Shown: positions 2,400 to 17,870 of the stretch, one piece after another | How positions within the stretch are numbered: position 1 is the first letter of the stretch | Layout of the letters: every line of letters begins with the position of its first letter | Assembly (NCBI GenBank): GCA_945897365.1 | Contig: CAMDFD010000008.1 | Location: 1 to 32,000, forward strand | Length of the DNA: 32,000 bases | Origin: Bordetella parapertussis | GTDB lineage: Bacteria > Pseudomonadota > Gammaproteobacteria > Burkholderiales > Burkholderiaceae_B | Reading direction: 5' to 3' | Notes under the pieces: generated by a model | What the model was told of the DNA's origin: nothing | Database searches by the model: none | What the model saw: only the letters and a program-made list of their open reading frames with translations | Position numbers and translations under genes: made by a program

Positions 2400-2447
2400 T
2401 GGTGGCCCGGGGCGGAATCGAACCACCGACACAAGGATTTTCAATCC
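2400..2447 (-). repeat. 48-nt copy of the 3' end of tRNA-Phe (distal att-type repeat of the island stack)
   Basis: TGGTGGCCCGGGGCGGAATCGAACCACCGACACAAGGATTTTCAATCC is identical to 18561-18608 of the intact gene. It runs from the CCA end into the anticodon loop, and the sequence diverges immediately afterwards. Confidence 0.9.
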
Positions 2448-2802
2448 CGTACTCACCGTCTTTAGACTATAGATTTCAAACGGTTAAGTCACCCCGTAAA
2501 AATGTCGCGCACAATTTGTGCTTATAAATCATGATGTTGGGGCGGGTCGTGAAAACTGTGAGCACATATTGTGGCAGCGTTTGCGAAATTGCTCAAGCAA
2601 AAATGTGTAACGAAAAATTGGGCGGGCGCTGCGGCATTGGATCGACGCTGCTGAAATCTGCCGCATATTTCCCACACTTCGCAGCCCCTTGTCGGTCACA
2701 CCTTATGTAGGTCGTCCAAAGGCAGCAATGGGCATAAACTTTGAGTAGCGACTGAGATTTCGATACAGCCCCGATTGGGGAGTAACAGTGCAAACGACTG
2801 CG

Positions 2803-2985
2803 TCAAATTTGCGCCGCAGCTGCCCGTTGTAATTTCTTTTGAGCGGCTTGCACTTGTTGACGCTTGCGCTCAGCCTTAACAGCCACTTGTGCGCGGTCTA
2901 CATTCTGTTTCAGCACTGCAATTCTTGCCTGTGCTGGAGTTTGTGGCAGTTGGGGTTTGATTGTTGTGACTTCGTAAATCAGCAT
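2803..2985 (-). CDS. Small basic hypothetical protein (60 aa, Ala/Gln/Lys-rich, probably helical)
   Basis: An ATG is preceded by GGAGAG at a 5-nt spacing. The gene lies just downstream of, and on the same strand as, the 146-aa gene. I recognise no family. Confidence 0.45.
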   Translation of the reverse strand: MLIYEVTTIKPQLPQTPAQARIAVLKQNVDRAQVAVKAERKRQQVQAAQKKLQRAAAAQI

Positions 2986-3009
2986 TGGTCTCTCCGTTGC
3001 TGTATTTAC

Positions 3010-3039
3010 TCAACTGTCGTGTAACACGACACTTCAACA
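3010..3039. repeat. Inverted-repeat partner A with palindromic core GTCGTGTAACACGAC (3016-3030)
   Basis: Its reverse complement matches 15751-15783 at about 30 of 33 positions (TGTTGAA..GTCGTGTTACACGACA..GTTGA). Confidence 0.6.
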
Positions 3040-3051
3040 ACAGGGTTGTTA

Positions 3052-3072
3052 AGCGTCCCGTTACAGGACGCT
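3052..3072. repeat. CGTCC-N7-GGACG palindrome, copy i (AGCGTCCCGTTACAGGACGCT)
   Basis: A perfect 7-bp inverted repeat AGCGTCC/GGACGCT surrounds CGTTACA. Related copies lie at 14341-14363 and 15548-15570. Confidence 0.6.
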
Positions 3073-3077
3073 TGCAC

Positions 3078-3515
3078 TCAACGCTTAAAGCCAGAACGCA
3101 GCGCACCGCTAGCGGATTCAATTTGAGCATCAAGCTCGCCAGTCTCAACGGCAGTTTTAATAATCTGCAGTATCCCTACTAGATGATCTGCAGCGCCAAC
3201 TTCGACGGTGGCTTTGCCTTTTGCTAGCTCAAGCTGTTTTGCACCATAACGTACAGTTAAACAAACTTTGCCATCTGTATTGGTCCACCACATGGGACGA
3301 ACACGCCGCTGTATTTCAACAGTCTTACGGCTGCCATCTTCACTGGCGACAGTTTTGAAACGAGTTGTGTTGTATGTCTGCCCTTGTTGTTGAGCAAGTG
3401 CCAACTGGATTTGATCAGCAAGTTTGCCAGCTAATTTATTGCGACGAATCTGGATAGGTGCCAATGCGGCTGTGCGTTTGGTATTACTCAACTTCAAATT
3501 TGCGAGTGCACTCAT
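3078..3515 (-). CDS. Conserved-looking hypothetical protein (146 aa from the internal ATG)
   Basis: The tracked ORF is 3078-3653. The ATG at 3515 (MSALANLKLSNTK...) has AGGAAA upstream, and the 46-codon N-terminal extension looks non-coding. I vaguely recall ~145-aa proteins of this type from proteobacterial islands but cannot name a family reliably. Confidence 0.65.
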   Translation of the reverse strand: MSALANLKLSNTKRTAALAPIQIRRNKLAGKLADQIQLALAQQQGQTYNTTRFKTVASEDGSRKTVEIQRRVRPMWWTNTDGKVCLTVRYGAKQLELAKGKATVEVGAADHLVGILQIIKTAVETGELDAQIESASGALRSGFKR

Positions 3516-3664
3516 TATGTATTTCCTAGATGTTGATTGGGCACACACAGACTGTATTTTCATATCGCCGACAAGGTCGATCAATTTCACCAAAATGCCA
3601 TAGAAAACTAAGAAATCAGGCTGTTTTTCGTATAGAAATATTTGGTCAGGCATAAATAATTGCG

Positions 3665-3857
3665 AGTTGCTTAGTGAGTTGCATTAGGTTGCTTGAAGAA
3701 AGAAGTTGCTTGTTACTAGTTACTTGTTACTGCTGTGGGACAAATGAGTAGCTCTGACTGCAACGCAGCTACTCGTGCAACCCCAGTCACTCAGTGACAG
3801 GCAACCCGCGACAAGCGACTTCTTTTGTTCCCTGCGACTTCTCGCAACTAATGCAAC
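3665..3857. promoter_or_regulatory. Divergent intergenic control region with dyad-arranged pentamer arrays
   Basis: RGTTGC occurs at 3665, 3677, 3687 and 3704. GTTAC occurs three times at 7-bp spacing (3712, 3719, 3726). An 8-bp-stem hairpin lies at 3746-3753/3767-3774. The complementary GCAAC occurs at 3760, 3777, 3801, 3844 and 3853. Confidence 0.4.
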
Positions 3858-3893
3858 CACTGCGACCAATCCATATTCTTAAAGGAGAAACAA

Positions 3894-4343
3894 ATGGAGA
3901 AGGAAATCGCGGTTCGTTTATTCGAAAACAAAAAGTTAGGAACTACATATGGCAAAGGCCTTTATCGATCAGCAGTACTAAATGCCAGCGTTGAGATTAA
4001 AGATCCGCACGTGAAATATTTATTAGATTTTTATCAATTCGACCGCTGGCAGCACACGGCCACGACAGATAATCAAATTGCCATGCTTGACCAAGTGGCT
4101 GAGCATTGTTCGTCAACAGATTTGACCAGTTGGGTGACACGCTACAACCCAACAACAAAGGAAAAAACGCCAGTCCAAGGAATAGCGATCTTGGATGAGC
4201 AAAGCCAAATGCTTCGAGTGATTGTGATTGATCCAGAGTTCAACATGGAGGATTCGTGGATCTTACCTGTTAGGGCTTGTAGCGTGACTCGCAACAATTC
4301 ACCCAGCTTGATTGCGACCAATACAGAATTGGCTAGTTGGTAG
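3894..4343 (+). CDS. Hypothetical protein (149 aa)
   Basis: An ATG has AAGGAG 8 nt upstream. The composition is protein-like. I recognise no motif. Confidence 0.6.
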   Translation: MEKEIAVRLFENKKLGTTYGKGLYRSAVLNASVEIKDPHVKYLLDFYQFDRWQHTATTDNQIAMLDQVAEHCSSTDLTSWVTRYNPTTKEKTPVQGIAILDEQSQMLRVIVIDPEFNMEDSWILPVRACSVTRNNSPSLIATNTELASW

Positions 4344-4462
4344 AAAAAAGCTCTTACACAGAGAAGTGCACAGACAAAGTCTTCGAGATAAATGCGAATT
4401 GTTAGTAATTCAATTACTCAATTAAATCGTTCTGTGTAAGAGTCCATTTTGAACATAAATTT

Positions 4463-4720
4463 TTAGAAGAACCACCAAATCCAAGTTCCGATTACATAAA
4501 AAATTCCAGAACCAAGAGAAGAAGCAATCATTTGAAAAATACCAGTTTTAACTTCACCCTTGACCATAACAATGATCGATAGAATGAATGCGACATTCGT
4601 GAGTACCAAACCCACTATGCCCAAGCCTGTTATCGGAATTAAGAAGCATGCCCAAGCAATTAGAACTGTGATCCAACCGGCTCTTACTGGAGGTTCCATT
4701 ACTTTTGAAGGAATACTCAT
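4463..4720 (-). CDS. Small membrane protein (85 aa, ~3 hydrophobic helices)
   Basis: The ATG at 4720 (MSIPSK...) is preceded by GGGAGAG; the track's start at 4732 is a TTG. Three long hydrophobic stretches are present. Confidence 0.6.
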   Translation of the reverse strand: MSIPSKVMEPPVRAGWITVLIAWACFLIPITGLGIVGLVLTNVAFILSIIVMVKGEVKTGIFQMIASSLGSGIFYVIGTWIWWFF

Positions 4721-5230
4721 TGTCTCTCCCAAATATTTTATTAATCAGTATTTTTCCAATAAATGCCAAAATAAAAACCAAAATCAATTTAGCATTCAAT
4801 TCTAAAAACAACAATTAATTTGTGATTTTTGATGGTTTTCATTTCATGACTTTCTGTTGGGTAAATGTCTGGTGCTATTGGCTACGAAACTGGGTTTCTA
4901 ACTGAAATCTTAATTAGCGCCCTGTAAAAAAAGCCCTACAAGCAAAGATCAAGCTCGTTTGAATATCAACACAGCTGGCTCGATAAATAACTGCTTGTAG
5001 GGCTCTGAATTTTCTGCAAAATCTTCGTGGGAAAAGAGCCACAAAACGGCAATTATGAGAACCAAAGGTAATTCGTATTTGCTTTGGTTCTGTACTTATA
5101 TAACCGCTAAGTCGTTGAATTCTGGGAGAAATCACACATGCTAGGTATCAACAAGAAACAGGTCGTCCAAAAATTAAAAAGAAATTACGCTTATTCCATA
5201 GCAATGCTTTGGTTAAGGAAGAAGCCCAAA

Positions 5231-5806
5231 ATGAGCAAACAAGCAAAGACGTTAACACCACAAGATTTGCGCCGTGTAATGGACTATGTAGCAACCCGTC
5301 CACACGCAGCCCGCAATCGTGCGATTGTTTTAATGATGTTTTACGCAGGGCTTCGCGTTGGAGAAACAGCCAGCTTGCGGTTACAGGATGTGATCGACGC
5401 AAATGGGCAAGTTCGCGATGAATTCGTACTGCGACCAGATCAAACCAAAGGTCGTCAAAGCAGAACAGTATTTGTCAGTGAGAAATTAAAGCGTGAATTG
5501 ACTGTGTACATCGCAGCAACAAAGACCCTGCATCCCAACGATAAGCTGTTTTACACACAGAAGAACTTGTGTGATGGCTTTAGTGCCAACACGCTGACGC
5601 AACACTTGTTTTGGATGTACCGTCGTGCAGGTATACAGGGAGCTAGTAGTCATTCGACACGTCGTACATTCATTACCAATTTAGCTGCGCAAGGGATCTC
5701 CGTTCGTGTACTGGCTAGCTTGGCTGGACACGCCAGCATAGCCACTACCCAAGCCTATATCGATGTAAATGATGACCAGAAGCGTAAGGCAGTGGAATTG
5801 GTGTGA
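5231..5806 (+). CDS. Short tyrosine recombinase (191 aa, catalytic domain only, FimB/FimE-like size)
   Basis: Motifs are RPHAARNRAIVLMMFYAGLRVGE (Arg I), HSTRRTF (His-x-x-Arg), LAGHASIATT and QAYIDV (Tyr nucleophile). There is no N-terminal SAM-like core-binding domain. The ATG at 5231 has AAGGAAG upstream; an alternative ATG lies at 5138. Confidence 0.85.
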   Translation: MSKQAKTLTPQDLRRVMDYVATRPHAARNRAIVLMMFYAGLRVGETASLRLQDVIDANGQVRDEFVLRPDQTKGRQSRTVFVSEKLKRELTVYIAATKTLHPNDKLFYTQKNLCDGFSANTLTQHLFWMYRRAGIQGASSHSTRRTFITNLAAQGISVRVLASLAGHASIATTQAYIDVNDDQKRKAVELV

Positions 5807-5852
5807 TGTCCGTTCAAAAGGACAAAACCATATTATCCTTTCAAAAGAACAT
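5806..5852. repeat. Tandem pair of the 20-bp palindromic motif (copies 2a and 2b)
   Basis: Copy 2a is ATGTCCGTTCAAAAGGACAA (5806-5825) and copy 2b is TTATCCTTTCAAAAGAACAT (5833-5852). Copy 2a begins on the last base of the recombinase stop codon. Copy 2b ends 6 nt from the stop of the convergent gene. Confidence 0.8.
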
Positions 5853-5858
5853 AACCAT

Positions 5859-6866
5859 CTATGCCAATAGATCGCTGCTGCCGTCTAAGAACGCAGGGAG
5901 TCGTCTGCGTACTTTGCTGTCTGGCATTCTATATTCGTTATCTAGACGATTGCGTCTAATGACCTCTGATTTCAGCTCAGTTAAATATGTCTCTGTCAGC
6001 CACACCTGCCAAGCAGACGTATTTGTAGCATAAGTACTCACAGCAGCTTTAAAGTCTTTTTGATGCTTGGCTCCGAAAGGGGCGTAATCATCAGGTAGGA
6101 CTATCTTGCTGTTGTTGGGAAAAGAACCACGCTCCACATTCAACAGAGTTCGTTCAGCTTTGTACAGGTAACGACCTGTCAGGCTATGCAATTTATCGAA
6201 TGGGCTACTGCCTGTATTAAATGCAATACGTTCTGCTGTTCTTACCTTGAGACTAGGGGCGATTTGTAGCCTATCCCCAATTCGCCAGATCTCCGTGCGT
6301 GGATACAGCAGTCGGTACAGCAACACCAAGTATTCAATTTCCAGTGTTCGCAGCCTGAAGCGTTTGGTGTGCAGCCTAAGAAGCGCATTACTCCTCTCGA
6401 CTACATTGAGATCGCGTCCCCGATGCCTTGGCACACCGTCAATCTGTTGCTCCAACAGGTCTTTGAGTTGTTTGAAGATGGTGGCTTTGCGTATGGTCAG
6501 CGGAATTTCAACGATCAAGCTGTTTTCATACAGCTCGATCTGAGCGTCAGTATTTGTTGGCTCAAGATCGACAGTACGCACTTTGGCTGGACGTTTAGCT
6601 TCGGCAAATACCGCACTACCTGTTGCCGCCCACCACTGGCTAAACCACCGTAAGGATAAGTCGCCAGCCCTTTCATATGCTTCAGCAACCACAGGGTCTG
6701 TAGGCGTAACGCTGGCGTGGCGTGCGTACCAATAAACTGGACTTAGCCGTAGGAACTGCCACCACCAGAAATAAACACTCCTCTCGGCATCGTGAGCCAG
6801 CAGCGTGTCATCAGTACGTGTAAATCCGGGCAAGCCTTTGAAAAAAGGATGTTTTTTTATTTCCAT
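5859..6866 (-). CDS. Hypothetical protein (335 aa) with a Trp-rich N-terminal segment
   Basis: This is a long ATG-initiated ORF with the distinctive stretches YFWWWQFLRLSPVYWYA and WFSQWW. I cannot assign a family. Confidence 0.7.
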   Translation of the reverse strand: MEIKKHPFFKGLPGFTRTDDTLLAHDAERSVYFWWWQFLRLSPVYWYARHASVTPTDPVVAEAYERAGDLSLRWFSQWWAATGSAVFAEAKRPAKVRTVDLEPTNTDAQIELYENSLIVEIPLTIRKATIFKQLKDLLEQQIDGVPRHRGRDLNVVERSNALLRLHTKRFRLRTLEIEYLVLLYRLLYPRTEIWRIGDRLQIAPSLKVRTAERIAFNTGSSPFDKLHSLTGRYLYKAERTLLNVERGSFPNNSKIVLPDDYAPFGAKHQKDFKAAVSTYATNTSAWQVWLTETYLTELKSEVIRRNRLDNEYRMPDSKVRRRLPAFLDGSSDLLA

Positions 6867-6996
6867 TTCATAACTGTAACAACTTTATCAATTATTCGAA
6901 AGTATCTGTTACGAATGACAAAATGCTCTTCATCGATGAGGCACAAACAACGGCACTTTCGCCACAACCGCCGAGTCGATAATTTGGAGAGTAAAA

Positions 6997-7851
6997 ATGA
7001 CTACAACCTTCGCGCAGTCCCCCGTCCTGACCACAGCAGTATCGGGCAACAAAAGTGCTGCAATGCAGCAAAATATCGTAGGTGAACAAAAGGTCGCTAA
7101 TTTGATATCGACTCAGCAAGCCAATTCGATGCGTCAGCGTATCGAGCAGTTGGCTGTGGAAGTTAGTGTTTGGGAAACAGGCGCATACACTGATTCAAAC
7201 AAGATCCTTTATGGCTTGTTGCAAAAGTCGTATGCCCTGTACTTAGATCTGACCAACAACGCGGATGGCAATCTCAAGCACCGCAAACAGGGCTTGGCTG
7301 ACTACTTGTCGCTTTCGGGTATGAGTGGTTATGAGGACAAGCCCTTGCCACAGCGCATCATTGCTTGCGTGTTTGGCAAGCGTGACCGTCGTCGTATGTC
7401 AACCTATCACGTGGTCCTGCGCTACATCATTGCTCAAAAATGGGACGTGGCAGCTGTGCCAGCAAACATCGCAGCTGCGGGTGGTGTACAGGAAATCTCG
7501 CTGGGGCGTCCTTCAGGCAGTTTGACAGCTAAGGAAAAGGCTGCGGTCGCAGGCCGACAGATCAATCAAACAGTGCTTGCAACTGTTCACGGCGCAGAGC
7601 TTGTCAAAACTTTTAATCCTGATTACTCAGGCGAGCAGTTTGCTGCGGTGTTGACACAAGAAGCAGATGGCAGCTTCAGCATTCACTGTGTGGTCAAGAG
7701 CACTACAGCGGTCAACGCAGCTTTGTCAGCTTATTTCGCAGCCAACAAAGATCAACTCAAGCAGGCGATTGATCAACAACAGGCAGCCAAAGCACAGGCC
7801 AATTTGGATGAGCTTAAAGCTGCAGCCGTCAATCACCCACTCGCAGCTTAA
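6997..7851 (+). CDS. Hypothetical protein (284 aa) with an Ala/Gln-rich, coiled-coil-like C-terminus
   Basis: An ATG has GGAGAG 6 nt upstream. It is divergent from the 335-aa gene and followed 45-57 nt later by the AAA+ gene. I recognise no catalytic motif. Confidence 0.7.
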   Translation: MTTTFAQSPVLTTAVSGNKSAAMQQNIVGEQKVANLISTQQANSMRQRIEQLAVEVSVWETGAYTDSNKILYGLLQKSYALYLDLTNNADGNLKHRKQGLADYLSLSGMSGYEDKPLPQRIIACVFGKRDRRRMSTYHVVLRYIIAQKWDVAAVPANIAAAGGVQEISLGRPSGSLTAKEKAAVAGRQINQTVLATVHGAELVKTFNPDYSGEQFAAVLTQEADGSFSIHCVVKSTTAVNAALSAYFAANKDQLKQAIDQQQAAKAQANLDELKAAAVNHPLAA

Positions 7852-7908
7852 ACAAATCGGGGGGGCGCAAGCCCTCCCAATAATCTGAACTAAAAATTGG
7901 AGAACACT

Positions 7909-8574
7909 GTGTTTAAAGAAGAAGATTTTGTCCCAAAGACAACAGCTGACTTGGTATTTGGCAACGCTCAATCTAAGTCGCTACTGGATGACTTGATCAG
8001 TGGTAACTATCCGTTTCCTGCCGTTGGCAAATGTGGAATTTTGCTGTGGGGAACTTGGGGTACTGGTAAGACTGCTGCTGCCAAGATCATTCCAGATGCG
8101 ATGGAAACTGCTCAGTTCAGCACAGACTCAAACTGGCACTTCGAACCTTGCGTAGCAGGTGGTAATGGACCTGCGCTCCTGAATCGGCTGGATAATCAAA
8201 CCCAGTTCGTTTCGTTCAACGCTAGTGGTCGTCATTACATCGTGTTAGATGAGGTTGATAACTTGACTGCAAATGCACAGTTGCATTTGAAATCAATTAT
8301 GAATCGTAAGGATGTTGTTTGGATTATGACTACCAACTACATCACGGGGATTGATCAAGGCGTTCAAAATCGATGTCATTTGATAGAGATGAATGCAGCT
8401 GACGCATCTGCGTGGTTGCCGCTGTGCCGGCGTGTGCTGGCATCTTGCGGTTCGGCACCGTTGCCAGACGCGGTTTTGCTACCAATCATTACAGCAGGCA
8501 AGGGTTCGGCGCGAGAGATCATCAACTCAGTAGCTCAAGTTGCTTTTGATCGAGCAAGAAAACAAGCCACGTAG
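7909..8574 (+). CDS. Clamp-loader-clade (RFC/DnaX-like) AAA+ ATPase lacking a collar domain (221 aa)
   Basis: It has Walker A GTWGTGKT, Walker B YIVLDEVD followed by LTANAQ..LK..M, sensor-1 MTTN, and NRC in the position of the clamp-loader SRC arginine-finger motif. The GTG at 7909 has GGAG 6 nt upstream; the track's start is a TTG at 7897. Confidence 0.8.
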   Translation: MFKEEDFVPKTTADLVFGNAQSKSLLDDLISGNYPFPAVGKCGILLWGTWGTGKTAAAKIIPDAMETAQFSTDSNWHFEPCVAGGNGPALLNRLDNQTQFVSFNASGRHYIVLDEVDNLTANAQLHLKSIMNRKDVVWIMTTNYITGIDQGVQNRCHLIEMNAADASAWLPLCRRVLASCGSAPLPDAVLLPIITAGKGSAREIINSVAQVAFDRARKQAT

Positions 8575-8577
8575 GTT

Positions 8578-8597
8578 ATGTCCTTTCAAAAGGACAT
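8578..8597. repeat. Perfect copy 3 of the 20-bp palindromic motif ATGTCCTTTCAAAAGGACAT
   Basis: It begins 3 nt after the stop codon of the AAA+ gene. Confidence 0.85.
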
Positions 8598-8672
8598 TGA
8601 CGTTGCCTTCTATTTTTTAGCCAATTCACTAATCTCATTCAAATCACAGATTTTTAATTCAAAGGACTAAAA

Positions 8673-8987
8673 ATGAAACAGTTTCAATCTGACGCAATCC
8701 CTCACACTTGTGCAGACGCAAAAATCAACAAGCTGCGATATGTCGACGCTGTATTCGCGTTAGAAGTAAAAAATGCAAAATATCGTGGAGCAGTTTTTAG
8801 CGGCATCATCGAACTTGTGAACGGGACTGACAGCATTCGTAAGTACAAAGGCACTGACCGCGCAAATGTCAAGCTAGCTTGGTTTGGTCAGGAGCTCAAA
8901 AAGCGTAATCCGTTCGTCAATCTAGCTAACGCAGAAATAACACTATTGCCTTGCTATACAGGTAAGGTTGTAGCGTCATTGGGGTAA
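8673..8987 (+). CDS. Hypothetical protein (104 aa)
   Basis: An ATG has AAGGA 7 nt upstream. I recognise no motif. Confidence 0.5.
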   Translation: MKQFQSDAIPHTCADAKINKLRYVDAVFALEVKNAKYRGAVFSGIIELVNGTDSIRKYKGTDRANVKLAWFGQELKKRNPFVNLANAEITLLPCYTGKVVASLG

Positions 8988-9040
8988 AAGTAATGGTAGA
9001 TATGATGATCCAGTTAGCTAAACTTGTCTCTGTGGTTTGA

Positions 9041-9238
9041 AAGAGCGGGCACGCACAAGCGGGCACTCCACTCACCAAGTTCCAAGCCTTGGGTGGATGG
9101 CTCACGATACAGATGGTCATGCGTTATGCCCACCTGTCTCCGGTGCATCTGACCGAGCGCGGAAGCAATGTACTATTTACGGCACAGCCAGCCCTAGAAA
9201 CACAAAAGCCACCGACAATGGTGGCTTTAAGTGCATGA
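9041..9238 (+). pseudogene. C-terminal remnant of a tyrosine integrase gene
   Basis: The frame starting at 9041 reads KSGHAQAGTPLTKFQALGGWLTIQMVMRYAHLSPVHLTERG...*. This is the typical integrase C-terminus (GTPL..LQ.LGGW....MV.RYAHL, including the catalytic Tyr). A stop lies immediately upstream at 9038-9040 and there is no N-terminal part. The hairpin AAAGCCACC/GGTGGCTTT at 9205-9228 overlaps its end. Confidence 0.75.
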
Positions 9239-9249
9239 TTTTACTAGGA

Positions 9250-9297
9250 AATACTGATGCCCCCCCCGTGAGTCGAACACGGCACCAACGGATGATG
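9250..9297 (-). repeat. 48-bp repeat M1 containing a tRNA(CAU)-like 3' end (degenerate CCA)
   Basis: On the reverse strand it reads anticodon loop CAT, stem TCCGT, T-arm CCGTG-TTCGACT-CACGG, acceptor GGGGGGC, then A-TCA. It has 2 mismatches to 13584-13631. Confidence 0.75.
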
Positions 9298-9389
9298 GGG
9301 GGCGGGCGCTCTAAGAAAAACCACTAGGATTTCAAGAGCTAAGTTAATCCTCCATTTTAAGATACACGGTCAGCAGAGTTGAAAGCTCG

Positions 9390-11057
9390 CTACGTCTTGG
9401 TGCCCAGTAAGGGAAACATTTCATTCGCAAACTCACCGGCAACCTTTAATGCCTGAGCGCCTGTAATTTTGGCATTCGGATCTTTAGGTAAGGAAGGCAC
9501 AGCATACCCAGTACGATGCGCAAATTTTATGATCGCTGGAATCATCGCCTGGGCTAACTCTGAATAGGCAGTGTCCAAATTATTAGGATCAGGTGCAACG
9601 TAAGGAGGGGCAGGCCTAGCCATGAGGTTGGGCCAAGTGCTAGGGTCCCGTGGCGTTTTTAAGTTGAAACAGGTTTCCAATGTTCTAGCACTTGCATCAC
9701 GTTGAGTAAACGGCTGACCTAAGTCCCAGACTTTGCGTAGAGTCGCAATCATGGAGGTATGTCGAAACTCTTGAGTAAACACAGTCTTTTCAGAAATCCA
9801 AGGCGAGATCATGATTGCCGGAGTCCGATAGCCCGACCAAGTGAAATCAAAATCATATTGAGCCTTGGGGGCAGAGGCCTCAGGAGCAGGCACCCGCGAA
9901 GGTGGCACGTGATCGTAGGTGCCACCGGGCTCATCCCATCCAATAAACAATGTTGTATTCAAGACATTCGCACCCGCTTGCTTCGTACCCATTGCCTTGT
10001 AAGCGTTATAAATACGAGACAAAAAAACTTCTCCACTCAGTACCGATGACGGGGGATCTAGTGCCAGGTTCTGACCCGCCATAATGGCCATGCCAGCACT
10101 GGGATGATAGTCAGCATGTCCATTGACCAGCGGCGGCTCAATAAATGCAAAATTAGGTAGTGTGCCATTCGCACAGTCTTTTTCATACTCAGAAAAAGGC
10201 ACGATATGAGTCGCAAAATACTTTCGTAGTACAGGCATACTTACCAAACCTGTAAAGGATAGTGGGTCAGGCTGTCCCACATAAATTTTCCAAGTTTTAC
10301 CTTTTTCAGAGAGGCGATTAAAAATAGTTTCTGCCTTGTTATCAATCAGAAAATTATCGGCTGGCGAGTTAACGACAAAACCAGACGAGGTGCCCGCCAC
10401 CCAAAAAGAACGGTTGGGAAACGTCTGCGATGGCACTTCTGAAAACCAATGATCAAAACAAGAAAACCCTCTGGCTAAGCCAGTAATCACTGGAATTTGC
10501 TCTGGCACAAAGCCAGTCATGATTTCAGAGTACTCTTTATAAGTCGGCTGGCGAAGATGATCAGCGGTAAAGTTGCTGATGTAATCTGCAACAAAGCCTT
10601 GCATATTGGGGATGGAATCAGGTGACTGCGGAGCATTCCAAGGGGCAGCCATATCTTTACCCATCTTGAACTTATTATGTTCATCAACGGTATTGAACAT
10701 CTGCGTCAGGGTATGAGGATATTCTTCACCAGGATCGGATGTGGGCGAATTCATCGAGGTTGCCACCCCGTAGTGAACCCTCCCATCAGGCGACTGATGC
10801 TGAGCCCAAGAGGGAACTGAATTACTCAGCTTTTTACCTACGACACCCTCAAATTGCGGCACCTCACCCTGCTGGTACAAGTACCCTAAAATATTATCGA
10901 AAGAGCGATTCTCAAATAGCACCAAAATCACATGATTCATCGCACTATCTTTAGTTAACTCAGTTTTGAGCTCAGCAAGTGCGGGATTTCCGAGAGCAAC
11001 TGCAGCGCTTCCTGCTGCAGTCGTTTTAAGAAACTTTCGACGATTAAAGGCATTCAT
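9390..11057 (-). CDS. Tat-exported phosphoesterase family protein (phospholipase C / AcpA acid phosphatase type)
   Basis: The N-terminus is twin-arginine, MNAFNRRKFLKTTAAGSAAVALG..ALA. The hallmark VLFENRSFDNILG is present. The protein is 555 aa from the ATG at 11057 (GGAG upstream); the track's start at 11069 is a TTG. Confidence 0.85.
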   Translation of the reverse strand: MNAFNRRKFLKTTAAGSAAVALGNPALAELKTELTKDSAMNHVILVLFENRSFDNILGYLYQQGEVPQFEGVVGKKLSNSVPSWAQHQSPDGRVHYGVATSMNSPTSDPGEEYPHTLTQMFNTVDEHNKFKMGKDMAAPWNAPQSPDSIPNMQGFVADYISNFTADHLRQPTYKEYSEIMTGFVPEQIPVITGLARGFSCFDHWFSEVPSQTFPNRSFWVAGTSSGFVVNSPADNFLIDNKAETIFNRLSEKGKTWKIYVGQPDPLSFTGLVSMPVLRKYFATHIVPFSEYEKDCANGTLPNFAFIEPPLVNGHADYHPSAGMAIMAGQNLALDPPSSVLSGEVFLSRIYNAYKAMGTKQAGANVLNTTLFIGWDEPGGTYDHVPPSRVPAPEASAPKAQYDFDFTWSGYRTPAIMISPWISEKTVFTQEFRHTSMIATLRKVWDLGQPFTQRDASARTLETCFNLKTPRDPSTWPNLMARPAPPYVAPDPNNLDTAYSELAQAMIPAIIKFAHRTGYAVPSLPKDPNAKITGAQALKVAGEFANEMFPLLGTKT

Positions 11058-11367
11058 CTCTAACTCCAATTTAAAATTCAGATATCACGGAAAGTGCGAG
11101 GCCAGCCATCGTTTTCTTCAATGCACGCATCACTTTCCCTACACAAGAAGTTGATTACTTCAGTGGCCTTTCCGCCTTGAGAGCGTGAGCCTTGCGGGCA
11201 AAACGTATGATGCTTAAAAACAGAGCAACTGCCTCTTTCACTCGCACGACTGTAGGCTATTGGCTTAGCAATACGAATGTACTTTGGTACAGTTTTGCCG
11301 CAATAACCCTAAATGGTTTACGCTATCAACAGGTTTTTTCTCTGACGTTTTTATTGATGCTGAGAAT

Positions 11368-12810
11368 ATGAATGCGTTTGCCGTCCTGAGCCTGATCTAC
11401 TTTCTCTTCACGATCATTTCAAGCATTATTTTGTACTGCTCGTTCAGAAAAAAATTAGACGCATCTGCGATTTACTTTTTGCTGTCTGAACTTTCAATGG
11501 CGACTACCTGCGCGGCCATATTTCTGGTCAACATACAGGTGATTGACGTCAATGCCACTTCAATTGGCATCCCAAATTTCGGGGCGTTAGCCGCCGAACT
11601 CTGCATTCTGTTTAGTCTGCTATCGATCGTGAAGCCGGTTAGCCGACGATGGTTTATCTTAGCCATTTCAATGCTGGGCTTAATGACCATACTTCTTGAA
11701 TCAATGAGAAGCCCAACGGAATATCGCATGGTGATTCTGGTTAACGCCATGGCTCTAACCTGCCTGTTCGTCATCAACTACTTTCTTTGTCGACGCAAAT
11801 TACTGCCGTTGTTACAGACGAATGGGTTTATGCGCCTATTTGGATGGTTTGAATTAGGCTTAGTAGGTTTTGGTTTGCTGCGATTGCTCGGAAGTTTTAT
11901 CGGAACACCGGTCATCCCAAGAGAGGTGCCAACTCAACTGGCGATTATTACGTTTGCGCTATATTTGGTGGTCGGCACTTTCCGCTATTTGTGCTACGTC
12001 GGATTTCGGATGACCTGGGTAGATCCAAATAATCCATCTGAGAATTTTCTCAACAAACCTTTAGTGAAGGCCATCGAAGAAAAACAACAATTTTTACAAG
12101 GGTTCATTGCATCAAATCGCATGATCGGCGTGAGTGCCCTAGCGAGTTCCCTCGCCCATCAGCTCAGTCAACCACTCACAACGATTGCATTCAGAGCTGC
12201 AACAACTCGACGAGAGTCAATTGAATCCGAGGAAAACTCTAATTTGATTGCCTCTCTAAATGAAATCAGTACTCAGTCAGAAAAACTTGCTGATCTCGTT
12301 CACAATCTCAGAAAATTATTTGGCGCTAAAAGCGATCAATTTAAAATCATCAATCTTCAAAAAATTACGAATGAAATTCTTGAAATCATTGCGCCTACGC
12401 TTGAGCAGAAAAAAATCACTTTACTTGTCAAATACCAAATAAATCCAATGGTCTTTGGCGATAGCGTTCAATTGCAACAAGTACTTATCAATATATTCAA
12501 CAATGCAAGCGAGGCACTGAGCGAGATTGGGGTTAAAGAGCGAGAGATTTCAATTACGCTAAGCGAACGTGAACAATTAGCGGTCATGACGATCGCCGAT
12601 AATGGTCCAGGTATCAATTCAGCAATACTTTCATCTATGTTTGAGCTTTACAACACCACAAAAGAGAACGGCTTAGGAGTTGGTCTGTGGCTTAGCAAAA
12701 TAATTATTGAAAAGCATCAGGGTCAAATTCGCGCATTTAATCGTCCCAACGGTGGAGCCATATTTGAAATTGAATTACCTCTACATGAGGCGGAGAAAAA
12801 AACGCAATGA
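11368..12810 (+). CDS. Sensor histidine kinase with a 7-TM N-terminal domain
   Basis: Seven hydrophobic helices precede the H-box SSLAHQLSQPLT, N-box NIFNNASEA, and G-boxes DNGPGI and GLGVGLW. The start is uncertain (ATG 11368 versus TTG 11284). Confidence 0.85.
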   Translation: MNAFAVLSLIYFLFTIISSIILYCSFRKKLDASAIYFLLSELSMATTCAAIFLVNIQVIDVNATSIGIPNFGALAAELCILFSLLSIVKPVSRRWFILAISMLGLMTILLESMRSPTEYRMVILVNAMALTCLFVINYFLCRRKLLPLLQTNGFMRLFGWFELGLVGFGLLRLLGSFIGTPVIPREVPTQLAIITFALYLVVGTFRYLCYVGFRMTWVDPNNPSENFLNKPLVKAIEEKQQFLQGFIASNRMIGVSALASSLAHQLSQPLTTIAFRAATTRRESIESEENSNLIASLNEISTQSEKLADLVHNLRKLFGAKSDQFKIINLQKITNEILEIIAPTLEQKKITLLVKYQINPMVFGDSVQLQQVLINIFNNASEALSEIGVKEREISITLSEREQLAVMTIADNGPGINSAILSSMFELYNTTKENGLGVGLWLSKIIIEKHQGQIRAFNRPNGGAIFEIELPLHEAEKKTQ

Positions 12811-13463
12811 AGGGGATGCGGGTCATCATTGTTGAGGACGATGCAGCGCTGAGGTTAAGCCTGACCGCGTGGCTTTCAAAGGACTATGTAGTGAGTTATT
12901 TTGAGTCTGCTGAAGCTTTACTCGAAGCACTCAAGGACTTTAAATTTGAAGATGGGTTGCCCACATGCATGCTGCTAGACTTTCAAATGCCGGGCATGAA
13001 CGGCGTTGAGCTACAAGCTCAACTTCATCGGATGGGTATTGAATATCCAGTCATCTTCATGAGCGGCAATGCATTACAAGCCGATATCATTGATGCCTGG
13101 CACGGAGGGGCCGTTGATTTTCTACTCAAGCCATTTAATGTCGACAAATTAAACGAAACTTTTTTAGCACTTTTTCAAAAGTGTGAAGACATAAAATCTT
13201 CTTTTCCACCGGCGATTCATAAAGAGGCGGTGGTAAATATCCCCATCAGTCCACGCGAGGCTCAAGTACTTTTGTTGCTCGGCACAGGTCATAAGCAACA
13301 CGAAATTGCGGAGATGCTACATGTCACTCTTCGAACAATCAAATGGCATAGAGCCAACCTGAAGGATAAGCTTGACTTAAACACGCTTGTTGAATTAGCA
13401 AGATATTGCATTGAAAATCGTGCATCAATAGAAAATATTGCAACGCGTAAGCTGAAACATTAG
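12807..13463 (+). CDS. Response regulator, REC plus LuxR/FixJ-type HTH
   Basis: It has VIIVEDD, LLDFQMPGMNG and LLKPF (receiver domain), then a C-terminal SPREAQVLLLLGTGHKQHEIAEMLHVTLRTIKWHRANL. Its ATGA start overlaps the kinase stop. Confidence 0.9.
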   Translation: MKGMRVIIVEDDAALRLSLTAWLSKDYVVSYFESAEALLEALKDFKFEDGLPTCMLLDFQMPGMNGVELQAQLHRMGIEYPVIFMSGNALQADIIDAWHGGAVDFLLKPFNVDKLNETFLALFQKCEDIKSSFPPAIHKEAVVNIPISPREAQVLLLLGTGHKQHEIAEMLHVTLRTIKWHRANLKDKLDLNTLVELARYCIENRASIENIATRKLKH

Positions 13464-13583
13464 TCGTTCGCTCGCCCTAGGGTGCCGCGGGTGGCACCGA
13501 GAACCAGTAAAAGCAGACAGAGCGGTAGCATGACTCAGAAAAGAAAAACGGATTTGAGAGCAAACCGCCCGCAAACCCGCATC

Positions 13584-13633
13584 AATACTGGTGCCCCCCC
13601 CGTGAGTCGAACACGGCACCAACGGATTATGAG
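13584..13633 (-). repeat. Repeat M2 containing a tRNA(CAU)-like 3' end with an intact CCA
   Basis: On the reverse strand it reads CTCATAA-TCCGT-TGGTG-CCGTG-TTCGACT-CACGG-GGGGGGC-A-CCA. The sequence 5' of the anticodon loop cannot form the D-arm or acceptor stem, so this is a fragment. Confidence 0.8.
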
Positions 13634-13691
13634 AGCGCATACTCTAGCTAGCATAGCAACAAAGTTGCACGTCTGCAGCATAGCGTTTACC

Positions 13692-13778
13692 AACTGTACA
13701 CGCAACGTGTGTTTTAACTGTACGTAACTGTGCAAAACTGTGCATACAAGCGTGTGTAAATGTACTGGTATTTGTGCA
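13692..13778 (+). repeat. Array of AACTGTRCR nonamers (iteron- or arm-site-like)
   Basis: The copies are AACTGTACA at 13692, AACTGTACG at 13716, AACTGTGCA at 13726 and AACTGTGCA at 13736; the last three have exact 10-bp phasing. Weaker copies are AAATGTACT at 13758 and ATTTGTGCA at 13770. Confidence 0.5.
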
Positions 13779-14201
13779 CCATAATTCAAATTACATTGGC
13801 TTAATCGACAACAAGCATTTAACGTAGCAAGCGTGTACGCACCAATTCAACGAACTGCTACGTTTTAATGGACACGGGACGCTGTATGAATTGCGACCAA
13901 TTTCCTAGACACTCGCTAGCTTCTGGTTAAACTACCATCCGAATTTTACTGACGAGGTAATTATGATTGTGAGCAAGAGTCGTTACTACCCTGCGAACGA
14001 AGGGGTGGAATGGTACGGACTTCACGAAATATTTAAATGCGATGCAAGCTGGGATGGTCGTTTATGATCCCGGACCCAAGTTAACCGATGCTAGTACTGA
14101 TCGATCGAGGGTTAAAGCACGCAGCCAATTCCGTATTTCTGTAAAAAACCTGTCGATTCTTTATGAGAAATTTGAAGATGTTGCATTCTGATTTTTAACT
14201 T

Positions 14202-14221
14202 TTGTCTTTTCAAAAGGACAA
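14202..14221. repeat. Copy 4 of the 20-bp palindromic motif (TTGTCTTTTCAAAAGGACAA)
   Basis: It matches the consensus at 17 of 20 positions and has the same TTCAAAA centre orientation. Confidence 0.7.
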
Positions 14222-14340
14222 AACTAACTTATTCCCCAGCTAGTAGCCTGTGCCTGCGTCGGCTCTGCAGCATGTCAATATTCATCTCCCCTGACAGTGG
14301 CCGAGCGTAAAATCGGTCAATCATTTCAACACTGGTTCAA

Positions 14341-14363
14341 CCGTCCCGTAACTAGACGCTTGA
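14341..14363. repeat. CGTCC-N7-GGACG family, copy ii (CCGTCCCGTAACTAGACGCTTGA)
   Basis: It matches 15548-15570 at 22 of 23 positions. The single difference (A for G) breaks the palindrome. Confidence 0.6.
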
Positions 14364-14370
14364 TCATTCG

Positions 14371-14396
14371 GTCATGTCCTTTCAAAAGGACATGAC
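14371..14396. repeat. Copy 5 of the palindromic motif, extended to 26 nt (GTCATGTCCTTTCAAAAGGACATGAC)
   Basis: The 20-bp core at 14374-14393 is perfect, with 3 extra paired bases on each side. It ends 4 nt before the integrase stop codon. Confidence 0.85.
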
Positions 14397-14400
14397 TCAT

Positions 14401-15666
14401 TCAAGCCAACTGCCCTGCCGCCATGGTAGCTGTAAGTTTACTGTAGTGCCGTTCAATCATCAGCACGGAGTTTCCCATCTGCCTTGCCAGCGTGTGTATG
14501 TCAGTGCCATTCTCCAGCAGTTCCAGTGTGGCGTAGGTATGCCGTAGTGAATACAGCGTACGTGCCTGACCACTACCCGTCAGCAGTAATCTCGTATCCT
14601 TGAGCAATCGCTTGAACATGCCATCCACTCTTGCTGGTTGATGCAAGTCCTCGCAACGAAATACCAGTTGTGAGCAATTGCTGGTCAATAATTGATCAAA
14701 TGTCATGCCTGTAATATCACTTTGCCGTGCGTGTAGTCTTTCCAACACAGCTACTGCAGCATGTTTGGCAATCAGCCAGCGCCCCCCAGTTTTGCCATCC
14801 ACCCAAATTCGCAAATATCTAACGCCCTTGTCTTTGTGCCAGCTGATGTGTTGCCAACGAATGCCTAGTGCTTCCGTGCCATGTCGCATGCCTGTGTACA
14901 GCAACATCTCTACATAGTCACGCACCAAGGGTCGTGTGATCCGCTCTATTGCCAATCTGCCCTGACCAGTCCACTCAGGCATTGCTGCCACGAGCTGATC
15001 AATCTCAGCACGAGTAAACGCTGGACGAGCGACACTTTTGATGCCAACGGTTGTTAATTTAGGTATCTTGGCGTTGGGACTGATCCAGCCATTTCTAACA
15101 CCAGTTTCACGCAGACGATTCCAAGCCGAAGCGAAATTCATCAGTGTTGATGCTCTGGGCCGCTTGGCCATCTGCCGATCACGCCACAGCTCGAAGTCCA
15201 CAATGTCTTGATGGGTCAGCTGTTCAAATTGTGTGTCGCCGAAGTAGGGCAAGAAGTAACGTTCAATACAACTCACATAACTGTCGTATGCGGTCTTGCC
15301 ACGAGCAGCATCTATTTGTCGCCTCAGTTCTTCCAATGCGACAGCCGCAATTTGTGCGAAGCTGCGTGCGTTGTGTGCTAAGCCCAGTTTCAGGCGAAAT
15401 CTGGCAAGGTCATAAGCTTCACAGGCAACCGCAACTGCCAGCTCAAGTGATGCTCGTTTCGTTGACTGCCTGTGCCACGCACCGTTCCGGATGCGATAGC
15501 GGAATTGCCACAGTGGGCTATCCACACGACGAAACACAACTACATCACCGTCCCGTAACTGGACGCTTGAGGGTTGTGCGTATTGGAGACGGGCAAGTGA
15601 GGGGCGGTCGTAGGTAGGTGAGGTTACAAGTGCGAGAGTTTGGAGGAGATCTCGCTTGCGGGACAT
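14401..15666 (-). CDS. Tyrosine-type site-specific integrase (421 aa)
   Basis: The C-terminal catalytic domain has LYTGMRHGEAL-like YTGMRHGTEAL (Arg I), YSLRHTYATLELLENG (Arg II region) and MIERHYSKL (Tyr nucleophile). Its long N-terminal domain is typical of island integrases. Confidence 0.9.
   Translation of the reverse strand: MSRKRDLLQTLALVTSPTYDRPSLARLQYAQPSSVQLRDGDVVVFRRVDSPLWQFRYRIRNGAWHRQSTKRASLELAVAVACEAYDLARFRLKLGLAHNARSFAQIAAVALEELRRQIDAARGKTAYDSYVSCIERYFLPYFGDTQFEQLTHQDIVDFELWRDRQMAKRPRASTLMNFASAWNRLRETGVRNGWISPNAKIPKLTTVGIKSVARPAFTRAEIDQLVAAMPEWTGQGRLAIERITRPLVRDYVEMLLYTGMRHGTEALGIRWQHISWHKDKGVRYLRIWVDGKTGGRWLIAKHAAVAVLERLHARQSDITGMTFDQLLTSNCSQLVFRCEDLHQPARVDGMFKRLLKDTRLLLTGSGQARTLYSLRHTYATLELLENGTDIHTLARQMGNSVLMIERHYSKLTATMAAGQLA
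15548..15570. repeat. CGTCC-N7-GGACG family, copy iii, inside the 5' part of the integrase CDS
   Basis: CCGTCCCGTAACTGGACGCTTGA encodes ..SSVQLRDG.. on the minus strand. Confidence 0.6.
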
Positions 15667-15750
15667 TAGCGGAATAGGGCTTGTGTATTCATACTGCTAT
15701 TTTAATTTCTGATTTGCGAGAGGTCGACCTGACTTTTTGGTTGGCTACGA

Positions 15751-15783
15751 TGTTGAACGGTCGTGTTACACGACACCCGTTGA
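15751..15783. repeat. Inverted-repeat partner B with palindromic core GTCGTGTTACACGAC (15760-15774)
   Basis: It matches the reverse complement of 3010-3039. It lies ~95 nt upstream of the integrase start codon. Confidence 0.6.
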
Positions 15784-15937
15784 CCACTTCAAGCCGTTAG
15801 CACGAAGTCAGCACCGAAATCAAACCTGACACAGCAATTCTTACGCAGCGGGTAAAAATGGGTGGCATCCTTCTAGACCCTAAATTTTATTAAAAAGTTC
15901 TAACAGCTAATATATATCCCTCAATCAAGGGAAAGTT

Positions 15938-16354: not shown

Positions 16355-16475
16355 GAAGCTACCCAATCAGTGATTTTTAGAACAATGTCATTTCATTTTT
16401 TAATACCCAAGGCGAGAAACTTTATTCAAAAGTTTTAACAATAGAGCCTAATCGTTTGCTATAGATTTTGGCTTA

Positions 16476-16514
16476 GGCTATTTAGCTCAGTCGGTTAAAG
16501 CGATGGAATCATAA
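16476..16514 (+). pseudogene. Orphan 5' half of an elongator-tRNA-Met-like gene, ending in the anticodon loop
   Basis: GGCTATT-TA-GCTCAGTCGGTTAAAGC-G-ATGGA-ATCATAA has an acceptor strand, D-arm, anticodon stem and a loop with CAT. The following TTTAT cannot pair with ATGGA, and no T-arm follows. Confidence 0.6.
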
Positions 16515-16601
16515 TTTATCACCTCAGTGAGTGCTTATATTAGTGCTCATGGTGTCAACAAACAACCAAAGATAGCGCGAGGGTGGTGGAAGGTCAGAAA
16601 T

Positions 16602-17840: not shown

Positions 17841-17849
17841 TGTGATTCT

Positions 17850-17870
17850 TGGTGGCCCGGGGCGGAATCG
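17850..17870 (-). repeat. 21-nt copy of the extreme 3' end of tRNA-Phe
   Basis: TGGTGGCCCGGGGCGGAATCG is identical to 18561-18581. Confidence 0.8.

Follow-up and report, generated by a model that had tools for sequence, protein, structure and literature searches.

What does a block of uncharacterized genes do for the genomic island that carries it? The block lies at 5231-8987 of a 32,000-nucleotide stretch of Bordetella parapertussis DNA (contig CAMDFD010000008.1 of assembly GCA_945897365.1, positions 1 to 32,000; hereafter the window). A preliminary description of this DNA had found in it five adjacent genes, encoding a short recombinase, a tryptophan-rich protein of 335 amino acids (aa), a 284-aa protein, an ATPase resembling clamp loaders and a 104-aa protein, and had proposed that they maintain or replicate the excised island, defend against phages or assist the recombinase. 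Our computational analysis gives good support to the conclusion that the recombinase, 335-aa, 284-aa and ATPase genes are the conserved core of small islands that insert at transfer RNA (tRNA) genes, and not cargo. It is also well supported that a set of cis-acting palindromes belongs to this conserved core together with the recombinase. The module and its protein families have no prior description in the libraries and literature that we searched; the type of island is already known.

All five open reading frames (ORFs), the spacer of 130 bp and the flanking palindromes were found again where they had first been placed:

5231-5806, plus strand: short recombinase gene, 191 aa; an upstream ATG at 5138, the start used by gene callers, gives 222 aa
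5807-5824 and 5834-5851: tandem palindromes, TGTCCGTTCAAAAGGACA and TATCCTTTCAAAAGAACA, between the convergent stops of the recombinase gene and the 335-aa gene
5859-6866, minus strand: 335-aa gene
6867-6996: divergent spacer between the 335-aa and 284-aa genes, exactly 130 bp, presumed promoter/operator region
6997-7851, plus strand: 284-aa gene
7859-7878, plus strand: G+C-rich stem-loop, GGGGGGGC-GCAA-GCCCTCCC, between the 284-aa and ATPase genes (-8.0 kcal/mol, z = -2.6)
7909-8574, plus strand: ATPase gene; GTG 7909 is the likely start, giving 221 aa, and the ORF opens at TTG 7897
8579-8596: perfect palindrome copy, 5 nt past the ATPase stop, right boundary of the module
8673-8987, plus strand: 104-aa gene

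The core of the block had been described as delimited by palindromes, and the copies at 5834-5851 and 8579-8596 do bracket 5859-8574. The divergence of the 335-aa and 284-aa genes around a control region was borne out by the measured spacer. Two other statements hold in part. Good ribosome-binding sites had been ascribed to the genes, and the ATPase gene has one (GGAG, 7 nt before GTG 7909), but the 335-aa gene has no obvious Shine-Dalgarno sequence. The ATPase gene does follow the 284-aa gene closely, as would suit the co-transcription proposed for them, with the correction that the G+C-rich hairpin at 7859-7878 stands between the two.

Conservation and exchange of the module's genes

The divergent 284/335 gene pair and the short recombinase gene occur together at more than 60 loci, in Polynucleobacter, Limnohabitans, Ca. 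Methylopumilus, Rhodoferax, Zwartia and many metagenomes, the hosts being freshwater Betaproteobacteria. Pair and recombinase are present in essentially all related loci with sufficient flanks, and this holds down to about 25% identity. The divergent orientation is preserved across all related loci, and the recombinase, of 168-230 aa, lies beside the pair in nearly all of them. Gene neighbourhoods, 32 loci from species genomes and clustering of ORFs all agree on this arrangement. The survey of neighbourhoods recommended in the preliminary description thus places the 284/335 pair, the ATPase and the short recombinase together in dozens of loci beyond this genome.

In the common layout, the ATPase and 284-aa genes share one strand, the 335-aa gene diverges from them and the short recombinase gene adjoins; a DUF6641 gene, often a gene for a 149-aa protein, and a large integrase gene at the island end complete the set (DUF6641 was present in 20 and the 149-aa gene in 13 of the first set of loci). 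The islands measure about 9-14 kb, one Rhodoferax island spanning 9.1 kb between its tRNA repeats, and the adjacent tRNAs vary among loci. At two loci, L003 and L013, a multi-locus tRNA scan found no tRNA, yet repeats and BLAST show tRNA-like sequence (L003 5184-5662); L013 8896-8999 matches the tRNA-Phe of the window.

The 104-aa gene, which had been counted as a member of the block, falls outside this module. Two metagenome contigs encode 335-aa and 284-aa proteins identical to those of the window (their ATPase is called as 221 aa), and the 104-aa gene gives strong E-values only in contigs of that kind; its protein cluster has three members, and one further match, in L025, is weak and lies inside a much longer unrelated ORF. 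Because it lies beyond the boundary palindrome and has strong matches only in contigs with identical 335-aa and 284-aa proteins, we regard it as local cargo.

Nor is the trio of 335-aa, 284-aa and ATPase genes obligatory. Among 55 loci with room downstream of the 284-aa gene, the next slot is occupied by the ATPase gene in 36 (about 65%), by an unrelated orphan gene in 16 (about 29%) and by something else in 3. The orphan, which we call p532, encodes a protein of about 490-532 aa (alignment A4; for example L163 4779-6374) and is flanked by palindromes like a cassette; the islands that carry it came to light through the scan of metagenomes for an 18-mer given below. This swap makes the ATPase an exchangeable member of the module and leaves the 284-aa protein, the 335-aa protein and the short recombinase, usually with DUF6641, as its invariant core. 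Subtypes of the 335-aa protein and of the 284/ATPase pair also combine freely across loci. We considered p532 as a T7-like or PolA-like polymerase, on the strength of an invariant D, K...FG and HD that resemble motifs A, B and C, and rejected the idea as unsupported: comparison by hhalign with E. coli PolA, T7 DNA polymerase, T7 RNA polymerase and a six-member alignment of phage RNA polymerases gave probabilities of at most 1%. The profile of the p532 alignment matched nothing among PDB sequences. Reading of the p532 sequence revealed no Walker A motif.

Exchange of this kind bears on the proposal of a module for defence against phages or plasmids, or for phage interference, with the ATPase or p532 as effector and the 284-aa and 335-aa proteins as sensors. 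Diverse and freely recombining subtypes (of the 335-aa protein, the 284/ATPase pair and p532) are a pattern typical of defence loci, the island setting and the orphan proteins fit as well, and small islands of this sort are often phage satellites. However, the module is the invariant part of the islands, with the variable cargo in other genes, and a recombinase and cis-acting sites accompany it without exception. PADLOC-DB 2.0 held no significant match (TRIP13 at 7.7e-5 and DolB at 1.2e-3, at the level of the P-loop only), and neither the module nor any relative of the 335-aa family was found in IMG/VR or the phage collection. We consider a defence function improbable. Among the roles first proposed, defence cargo fits worst with a module that does not vary from island to island in this family; we keep both maintenance or replication and factors that assist the recombinase, and the data lean toward a link with the palindromic sites.

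As the preliminary description had it, the combination of genes matches no described system of defence, replication or transfer, whether in Pfam, NCBIfam, PADLOC, PHROGs, PDB (sequence and fold), BFVD or the literature; literature searches on DUF6641, and on a tyrosine recombinase with an AAA+ ATPase, an integrative element and a clamp loader, yielded nothing relevant. The DNA has no similarity to E. coli genomes or to plasmids. The 284-aa family is absent from plasmids, and the 335-aa family is present there only as a degenerate copy on three Bradyrhizobium plasmids, without 284-aa or ATPase partners. This homologue in Bradyrhizobium barranii plasmid pBb144S4a (L045, 216129-216807, 31% identity) lies about 2.4 kb downstream of a CyRepA1-family replication gene, among insertion sequences.

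The four core proteins

Only two proteins of the block contain recognisable domains, the recombinase and the ATPase, in agreement with the first reading of this DNA. The match of the recombinase to PF00589 (9e-29) spans 2-170 of the 172 positions of the Pfam profile, and the catalytic residues R42, K73, H151, R154, H177 and Y186 can be read from the 191-aa translation. Its best relative in the PDB, XerA (4a8e, 3.5e-18), is aligned solely over residues 102-274. Against the XerA model, only residues 92-261 are aligned, with 93.9 bits against a cut-off of 220 for the XerC/XerD/XerA equivalogs. Since the recombinase aligns only to the C-terminal half of Xer proteins, it lacks the N-terminal core-binding domain, and we classify the protein as a predicted Xer-type tyrosine recombinase that consists of the catalytic domain alone. 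The gene (5138-5806) carries the Joint Genome Institute (JGI) annotation XerD. Clustering at 90% identity places 208 members with the recombinase, against 6 with the 335-aa protein and 9 with the 284-aa protein, so one type of recombinase may serve many partner variants.

The tyrosine recombinases FimB and FimE, of about 190-200 aa, also comprise a catalytic domain without a core-binding domain and rely on accessory DNA-binding proteins. The short recombinase shares their size and catalytic-only build. Unlike them, it scores just 32.5 bits against NF007370 (cut-off 221) and has XerA and XerD as its closest relatives; in place of a small invertible promoter segment, a 2.7-kb block of three genes lies between direct sites.

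For the ATPase, the matches are the phrog_168 clamp loader (2e-22), PF00004 (5.6e-8) and the RFC small subunit 2chg (2e-5). Its translation contains a Walker A motif (GTWGTGKT), a Walker B motif (VLDEVD), NRC in place of the SRC arginine finger and a sensor 2 motif (GSAREIIN). With the clamp loaders (RFC small subunit, DnaX and T4 gp44) it thus has in common Walker A and B, an SRC-type finger, the sensor-2 pattern GxxRxxxN and a lid. Clamp loaders are its best matches in every library, at scores that are all far below the curated cut-offs; against NF001679 it reaches 40.9 bits, where the cut-off is 303, and the alignment ends at about position 210 of 322. Alignments span domains I-II of 2chg and of phrog_168, and the protein, of 221-225 aa, ends after the lid. 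We identify it from these matches as an AAA+ protein of the clamp-loader clade with domains I-II only. Unlike clamp loaders, it lacks the collar for pentamer assembly and is encoded with two orphans, not with clamp or polymerase genes. A looser parallel exists with MuB, TnsC/TnsD, TniB/TniQ and IstB, in which a small AAA+ ATPase of a mobile element stands beside a site-selecting protein and a recombinase; these systems use DDE transposases. The module can be likened to regulators of the MuB/TnsC type by general architecture alone, and the AAA_22 match is below its cut-off.

The 335-aa, 284-aa and 104-aa proteins have no match in Pfam, NCBIfam, PADLOC or PHROGs, and every relative of the 335-aa and 284-aa proteins that bears a name in its source is called "hypothetical protein". 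Profile and Foldseek searches, which had been suggested as a check, place the 335-aa and 284-aa proteins in no known family or fold. The 284-aa protein has between 80 and 175 relatives. In its AlphaFold 2 model (predicted local distance difference test, pLDDT, 83.4), the N-terminus is disordered; next come a helix of 50 residues, a helical domain, a beta hairpin and, at the C-terminus, a coiled coil, and alignment columns reveal an invariant F-x3-DRRR-x3-Y motif in the helical domain. Neither families nor PDB sequences provided a match, and Foldseek found none in the PDB (best E 1.1).

The 335-aa protein is modelled by AlphaFold 2 with confidence (pLDDT 85.9; predicted template modelling score, pTM, 0.80) as a mostly helical, tryptophan-rich protein whose N-terminal bundle is itself rich in tryptophan. 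Foldseek gave no match to this model (best E 1.7 in the PDB and 1.5 in BFVD), nor did families or PDB sequences, a profile search with the alignment included. A word-indexed search returned 187 relatives and an exhaustive profile search 873 clusters at 50% identity (E<=1e-3); by these counts the protein is a member of a large orphan superfamily. Hints of a helix-turn-helix around EIWRIGDRLQIAPS were sub-significant (0.075 and 0.16, for the consensus sequence), and one of 82 distant family members weakly matched the transcription-regulator domain PF20109 in a Pfam scan. A helix-turn-helix may lie around residues 170-205, which we treat as a lead and not as a result. The 130-bp spacer (6867-6996) contains no match to the sigma-70 consensus. 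An inverted pair TGTAACA...TGTTAC at 6877-6914 in this spacer is a possible operator, and its GTAAC/GTTAC core is also the centre of other palindrome classes of the island (3015, 3053, 14342 and 15751).

Palindromic sites and a possible mechanism

The palindrome TGTCCTTTCAAAAGGACA occurs at 5807, 5834, 8579, 14203 and 14375 (at most 2 mismatches), all copies on the same strand and all inside the island. With up to 3 mismatches allowed, a scan of the window returned 9 matches, counting both strands of these five sites, where 0.03 would be expected by chance. Palindromes lie on both sides of the module:

3015-3031 and 3053-3071: palindromes of the companion backbone
14203, about 14342, 14375, about 15549 and 15751: palindromes of the integrase region (14203-15775)

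Islands of the relatives contain analogous palindromes of 17-19 bp, built as GTC-stem-loop-stem-GAC, whose inner sequence is constant within an island and differs between islands; the related loci (562 kb) hold 124 of them, against 38 +/- 5 expected. They tend to follow stop codons: a palindrome lies within 80 nt after the stop for 86% of p532 genes, 60% of 335-aa genes, 51% of ATPase genes and 48% of short recombinase genes, against 11% of 284-aa genes. The median distance from stop to palindrome is 3 nt for the 335-aa gene and ranges over 3-11 nt for the 335-aa, ATPase, recombinase and p532 genes. In many relatives, a copy also lies about 210-280 nt upstream of the 335-aa start, inside the 5' end of the 284-aa gene and at conserved spacing; the 284-aa gene of the window has no internal GTC palindrome. 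In some relatives, a copy is found in the divergent promoter region of the recombinase and DUF6641 genes, about 105 nt upstream of the DUF6641 start.

To relate palindromes to proteins, we classed loci by their dominant half-site and measured, as an area under the curve (AUC), how well the similarity of each protein to its counterpart in the window predicts the window's class. The AUC was 0.92 for the 284-aa protein, 0.72 for the ATPase (few cases), 0.44 for the integrase, 0.42 for the short recombinase, 0.38 for DUF6641 and 0.13 for the 335-aa protein. At the Zwartia vadi locus (L024), the recombinase (phmmer 1.8e-116), the 149-aa gene and DUF6641 are closely similar to those of the window, whereas the 335/284/ATPase block is divergent, inverted and flanked by another palindrome class. 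Because its clade tracks the palindrome class, and because of this contrast at L024, we take the 284-aa protein as the candidate specificity partner and reader of the palindromes, with low confidence.

Palindromes also mark several junctions between modules. Homology of the window with L024 covers 3048-4333 and 4924-5802, and that with its closest relative, L013, covers 3049-4102 and 4932-8599; three of the breakpoints in the window (3048/3049, 5802 and 8599) are within 5 nt of palindromes (3053, 5807 and 8579). Across loci, 11.8% of 85 sharp endpoints of homology (at least 88% identity) fall within 15 nt of a palindrome, compared with 3.6% under an intergenic null and 1.1% under a uniform null. 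Examples include an integrase module and a whole core module with a palindrome at either end, and junctions often contain tandem double palindromes or hybrid half-sites. Relative to the recombinase, the 335/284/ATPase block is found either way round; since the orientations come with divergent genes, they point to replacement of the module and not to a proven switch. Active inversion was considered and set aside: the window and its two matching metagenome contigs share a single arrangement, and orientations elsewhere accompany divergent genes.

We tentatively favour, with low confidence, the reading that the module is the island's own DNA-handling core, in which the palindromes are read by the 284-aa protein and acted on by the recombinase, regulation falls to the 335-aa protein and the ATPase serves as an accessory that can be exchanged. 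Binding to the GTC...GAC palindromes of the island would be the task of the 284-aa protein, which probably forms a coiled-coil dimer and has an invariant DRRR patch. The short Xer-like recombinase, which lacks the N-terminal domain that usually clamps DNA, would be brought to the palindromes and would recombine them. Multimers of the excised circle would be resolved in this way, and over evolutionary time modules would be swapped and flipped between islands in the manner of dif modules. The divergently transcribed 335-aa protein would regulate the module, and the collar-less ATPase of clamp-loader type would be an exchangeable motor or loader working with the 284-aa protein.

The dif (pdif) modules of Acinetobacter plasmids are moved by XerC/XerD (PMC13141974, PMC6449649, PMC9947245). 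Like them, the islands consist of discrete gene modules with short palindrome-like sites on both sides, found in varied contexts and orientations, together with a catalytic domain of the Xer family. In contrast to them, the sites are near-perfect palindromes of 17-19 bp and not 28-bp XerC/XerD sites of the form 11-6-11 in alternating orientation; the recombinase is a single protein, encoded on the island and devoid of the core-binding domain, and that the sites recombine is our inference. Integrons have an IntI integrase with an extra domain, an attI site and promoterless cassettes between attC sites; the islands differ from them in the score against TIGR02249 (54.5 bits, cut-off 265), in having divergent promoters of their own and in sites of 17-19 bp. 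A stronger version of our reading is a split site-specific recombination system, in which a catalytic-only recombinase would take its specificity from a separate, co-evolving 284-aa protein of novel fold, with the ATPase assisting and modules exchanged between bounding palindromes. We judge this version unlikely. If true, it would amount to self-encoded cassette exchange, analogous to integrons and dif modules and built from different parts, and such exchange could drive the mosaicism of genomic islands in abundant freshwater bacteria.

Several observations weigh against the DNA-handling reading. The co-variation of the 284-aa protein with the palindromes is confounded by physical linkage and host lineage, and no DNA-binding fold was recognised in its model by Foldseek against the PDB. 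The roughly threefold enrichment of breakpoints is modest and its 85 endpoints are non-independent; the breakpoints of the window at about 4100-4330 and at 4924-4932 lie away from palindromes. The sites are near-symmetric, 17-19 bp long and variable in spacing, and sites of tyrosine recombinases usually have arms of 11-13 bp around a spacer of 6-8 bp. All five copies in the window are direct repeats, an arrangement in which deletion would be favoured. We caught no rearrangement in progress: a single arrangement is shared by the window and the two metagenome contigs with identical 335-aa and 284-aa proteins. The central bases of the palindrome that follows the 335-aa gene are flipped, from CA in the window (5807-5824) to TG in L013 (4816-4833); as the copy after the ATPase gene is not flipped, the boundary sites are direct in the window and inverted in L013. 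Similar palindromes also occur in the host flanks of L006. Finally, what we propose for the ATPase and for the 335-aa protein is guesswork, and the replacement of the ATPase by an unrelated protein disfavours a tight 284-ATPase machine.

Some of these points would be expected if the palindromes were hairpins, similar to terminators or to repetitive extragenic palindromic (REP) elements and unlinked to the proteins, and if the genes shared a regulatory role, for example with the 335-aa protein as an activator that controls excision. The hairpins have energies of -6 to -11 kcal/mol and stand right after stops, close relatives differ by a flip of the central loop of the kind seen at hairpins, similar palindromes lie in the host DNA that flanks L006 and L037, and the one distant 335-family member matches a transcription-regulator domain weakly. 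However, an exact 18-mer scan of metagenome contigs recovered 120 contigs, of which at least 44 carry genes of this family and about 16 more carry p532; with about 60 of 120 contigs belonging to the island family, the palindrome is specific to these elements and not a host repeat. The same sequence is repeated within an island and differs between islands, and copies lie inside the 284-aa coding region and in promoter regions. Host-wide REP elements are largely rejected for the class of the window, since roughly half of the 18-mer contigs carry family genes, and intrinsic terminators are rejected, since there is no T-tract and no palindrome fits the pattern of stem and T-tract. We hold the hairpin explanation to be rather improbable.

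Two details of these sequences may be added. The flip of CA to TG could be a flip of a hairpin loop or the trace of a recombination. The intergenic host palindromes of like form (TGTCGGTTCAACCGACA; L006 1987, 3371, 6521 and 20941; L037 299-361) could be what is left of earlier islands, or they could belong to a repeat family of the host.

The main rival to the DNA-handling reading is replication and maintenance of the excised island. Here the 284-aa protein would be an initiator that binds the origin, with its sites in and around its own gene as for lambda O, the ATPase would load host factors, the 335-aa protein would regulate and the recombinase would be a multimer resolvase only. In favour of replication, many relatives have palindromes inside the 284-aa coding region, at conserved spacing, and the AAA+ clade of the ATPase is one associated with replication. 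A palindrome invariably borders the recombinase gene, much as loxP adjoins cre and rfsF adjoins resD. The islands encode no other recognisable replication function, and tycheposons and phage-inducible chromosomal islands (PICIs) hold a small replication module in a like position (10.1101/2020.12.28.424599). Against replication, Pfam, NCBIfam and PHROG scans of the ORFs of the island revealed no domain of a primase, helicase or polymerase, and the polymerase interpretation of p532 failed its profile tests. Near the block we found neither an iteron cluster nor an AT-rich unwinding element. The sites lie scattered at intervals of 0.6-1.2 kb, most of them where genes end, and the 284-aa gene of the window lacks the internal copy. 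Nor do the 284-aa and 335-aa folds match any known initiator. We regard replication as possible and as somewhat less likely than the DNA-handling reading.

The dispersal of element-specific palindromes at operon ends, with some copies ahead of DUF6641 in the divergent promoter region, would in turn suit partition, silencing or insulation. On this account the 284-aa protein would coat or bridge palindromes in the way that ParB and KorB do, the ATPase would be the NTPase that partners it, and the recombinase and the 335-aa protein would have separate jobs; the excised circle would thereby be segregated, or the operons of the island insulated or repressed. The single operon of the 284-aa and ATPase genes, the palindrome class that follows the 284-aa clade, and the coiled coil and invariant arginine patch of the 284-aa protein are all consistent with this. 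Unlike in ParABS and KorB systems, however, the ATPase is an AAA+ protein and not a ParA-type Walker ATPase, and the 284-aa model matches neither ParB, KorB nor any other fold in the PDB. In 29% of loci p532, with no Walker A motif seen, takes the place of the ATPase, and sites right after stops between convergent genes are not in operator positions. Partition seems to us about as improbable as hairpins without a protein partner.

The island of the window and islands of similar build

The window contains a tRNA-Phe gene at 18561-18636, copies of whose 3' part lie at 2379-2441, 16639-16701 and 17840-17870. Since the 3' part is present four times (at 2379-2441, 16639-16701, 17840-17870 and 18540-18636), at least three elements are integrated in tandem. 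The block resides in the largest of them, at about 2441-16639, which is lower in G+C than the flanking host DNA with hemA, prfA and TctC. The raw run ERR3719157 and the sample behind ERZ27280279 contain the identical island. Other backbone features of this element are as follows:

3015-4343: companion backbone, with the palindromes, DUF6641 and the 149-aa gene; homology to L013 and L024 starts at 3048/3049
3078-3653, minus strand: DUF6641 gene (PF20346, 1.6e-12; phrog_31551, 3e-27)
3894-4343, plus strand: 149-aa gene
14401-15666, minus strand: island integrase gene, 421 aa (PF00589; phrog_1, 1e-35), facing the island interior and adjoining the attachment-site copy at 16639

Islands of this build resemble tycheposons, and the likeness is drawn from architecture and not from integrase lineage. 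As in tycheposons and PICI-like tRNA islands (10.1101/2020.12.28.424599) and the islands of Methylophilaceae (PMC10872708), a tRNA gene is the insertion site and partial-tRNA repeats form tandem arrays, a tyrosine integrase at one end faces inward, a small conserved module is combined with nutrient-type cargo (here a phosphoesterase with a twin-arginine translocation, TAT, signal and a two-component system), and the hosts are planktonic bacteria with streamlined genomes. Unlike in tycheposons, the hallmark primase, helicase and polymerase are not recognisable in the island of the window, and the conserved module consists of the recombinase, 335-aa, 284-aa and ATPase genes with their palindromes, of which 10.1101/2020.12.28.424599 and PMC10872708 make no mention.

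The hosts are among the most abundant freshwater bacteria and the islands carry niche-defining cargo; within this widespread family the module is the only part that stays constant. It comprises two protein families whose confidently predicted structures match nothing solved. Whichever of recombination, replication or partition is true, the answer would assign a function to several orphan families and provide a handle on the workings of small islands. The module is present in cultured strains, among them Limnohabitans sp. DCL3 (NZ_CP171842), Polynucleobacter sphagniphilus MWH-Weng1-1, P. aenigmaticus MWH-K35W1, Polynucleobacter sp. AP-Reno-20A-A9 and Zwartia vadi IMCC34845, which makes its function directly testable.

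Within the largest element, a 4.3-kb insert lies between 48-nt direct repeats (96% identical; regions 9040-9297 and 13584-13631) and holds the genes for the TAT-signal phosphoesterase (9390-11069), a histidine kinase and a LuxR-type response regulator; it looks like a nested or decayed second element. The 48-nt repeat resembles a tRNA T-arm, and a C-terminal remnant of an integrase ('...LGGW..MVMRYAHLSP') lies at about 9040-9200, left of the first copy. The small tandem elements at 16.7-17.8 kb and 17.9-18.5 kb contain a gene for a 266-aa orphan and a ParE toxin gene (17889-18206). No complete ORF of at least 100 aa is listed before 3078. At the left end of the window, from 1 to about 1700 and possibly 2400, the minus strand consists of degenerate 72-nt (24-codon) repeats. 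These probably form the end of a very large, repetitive gene for a surface protein, which extends past the start of the window.

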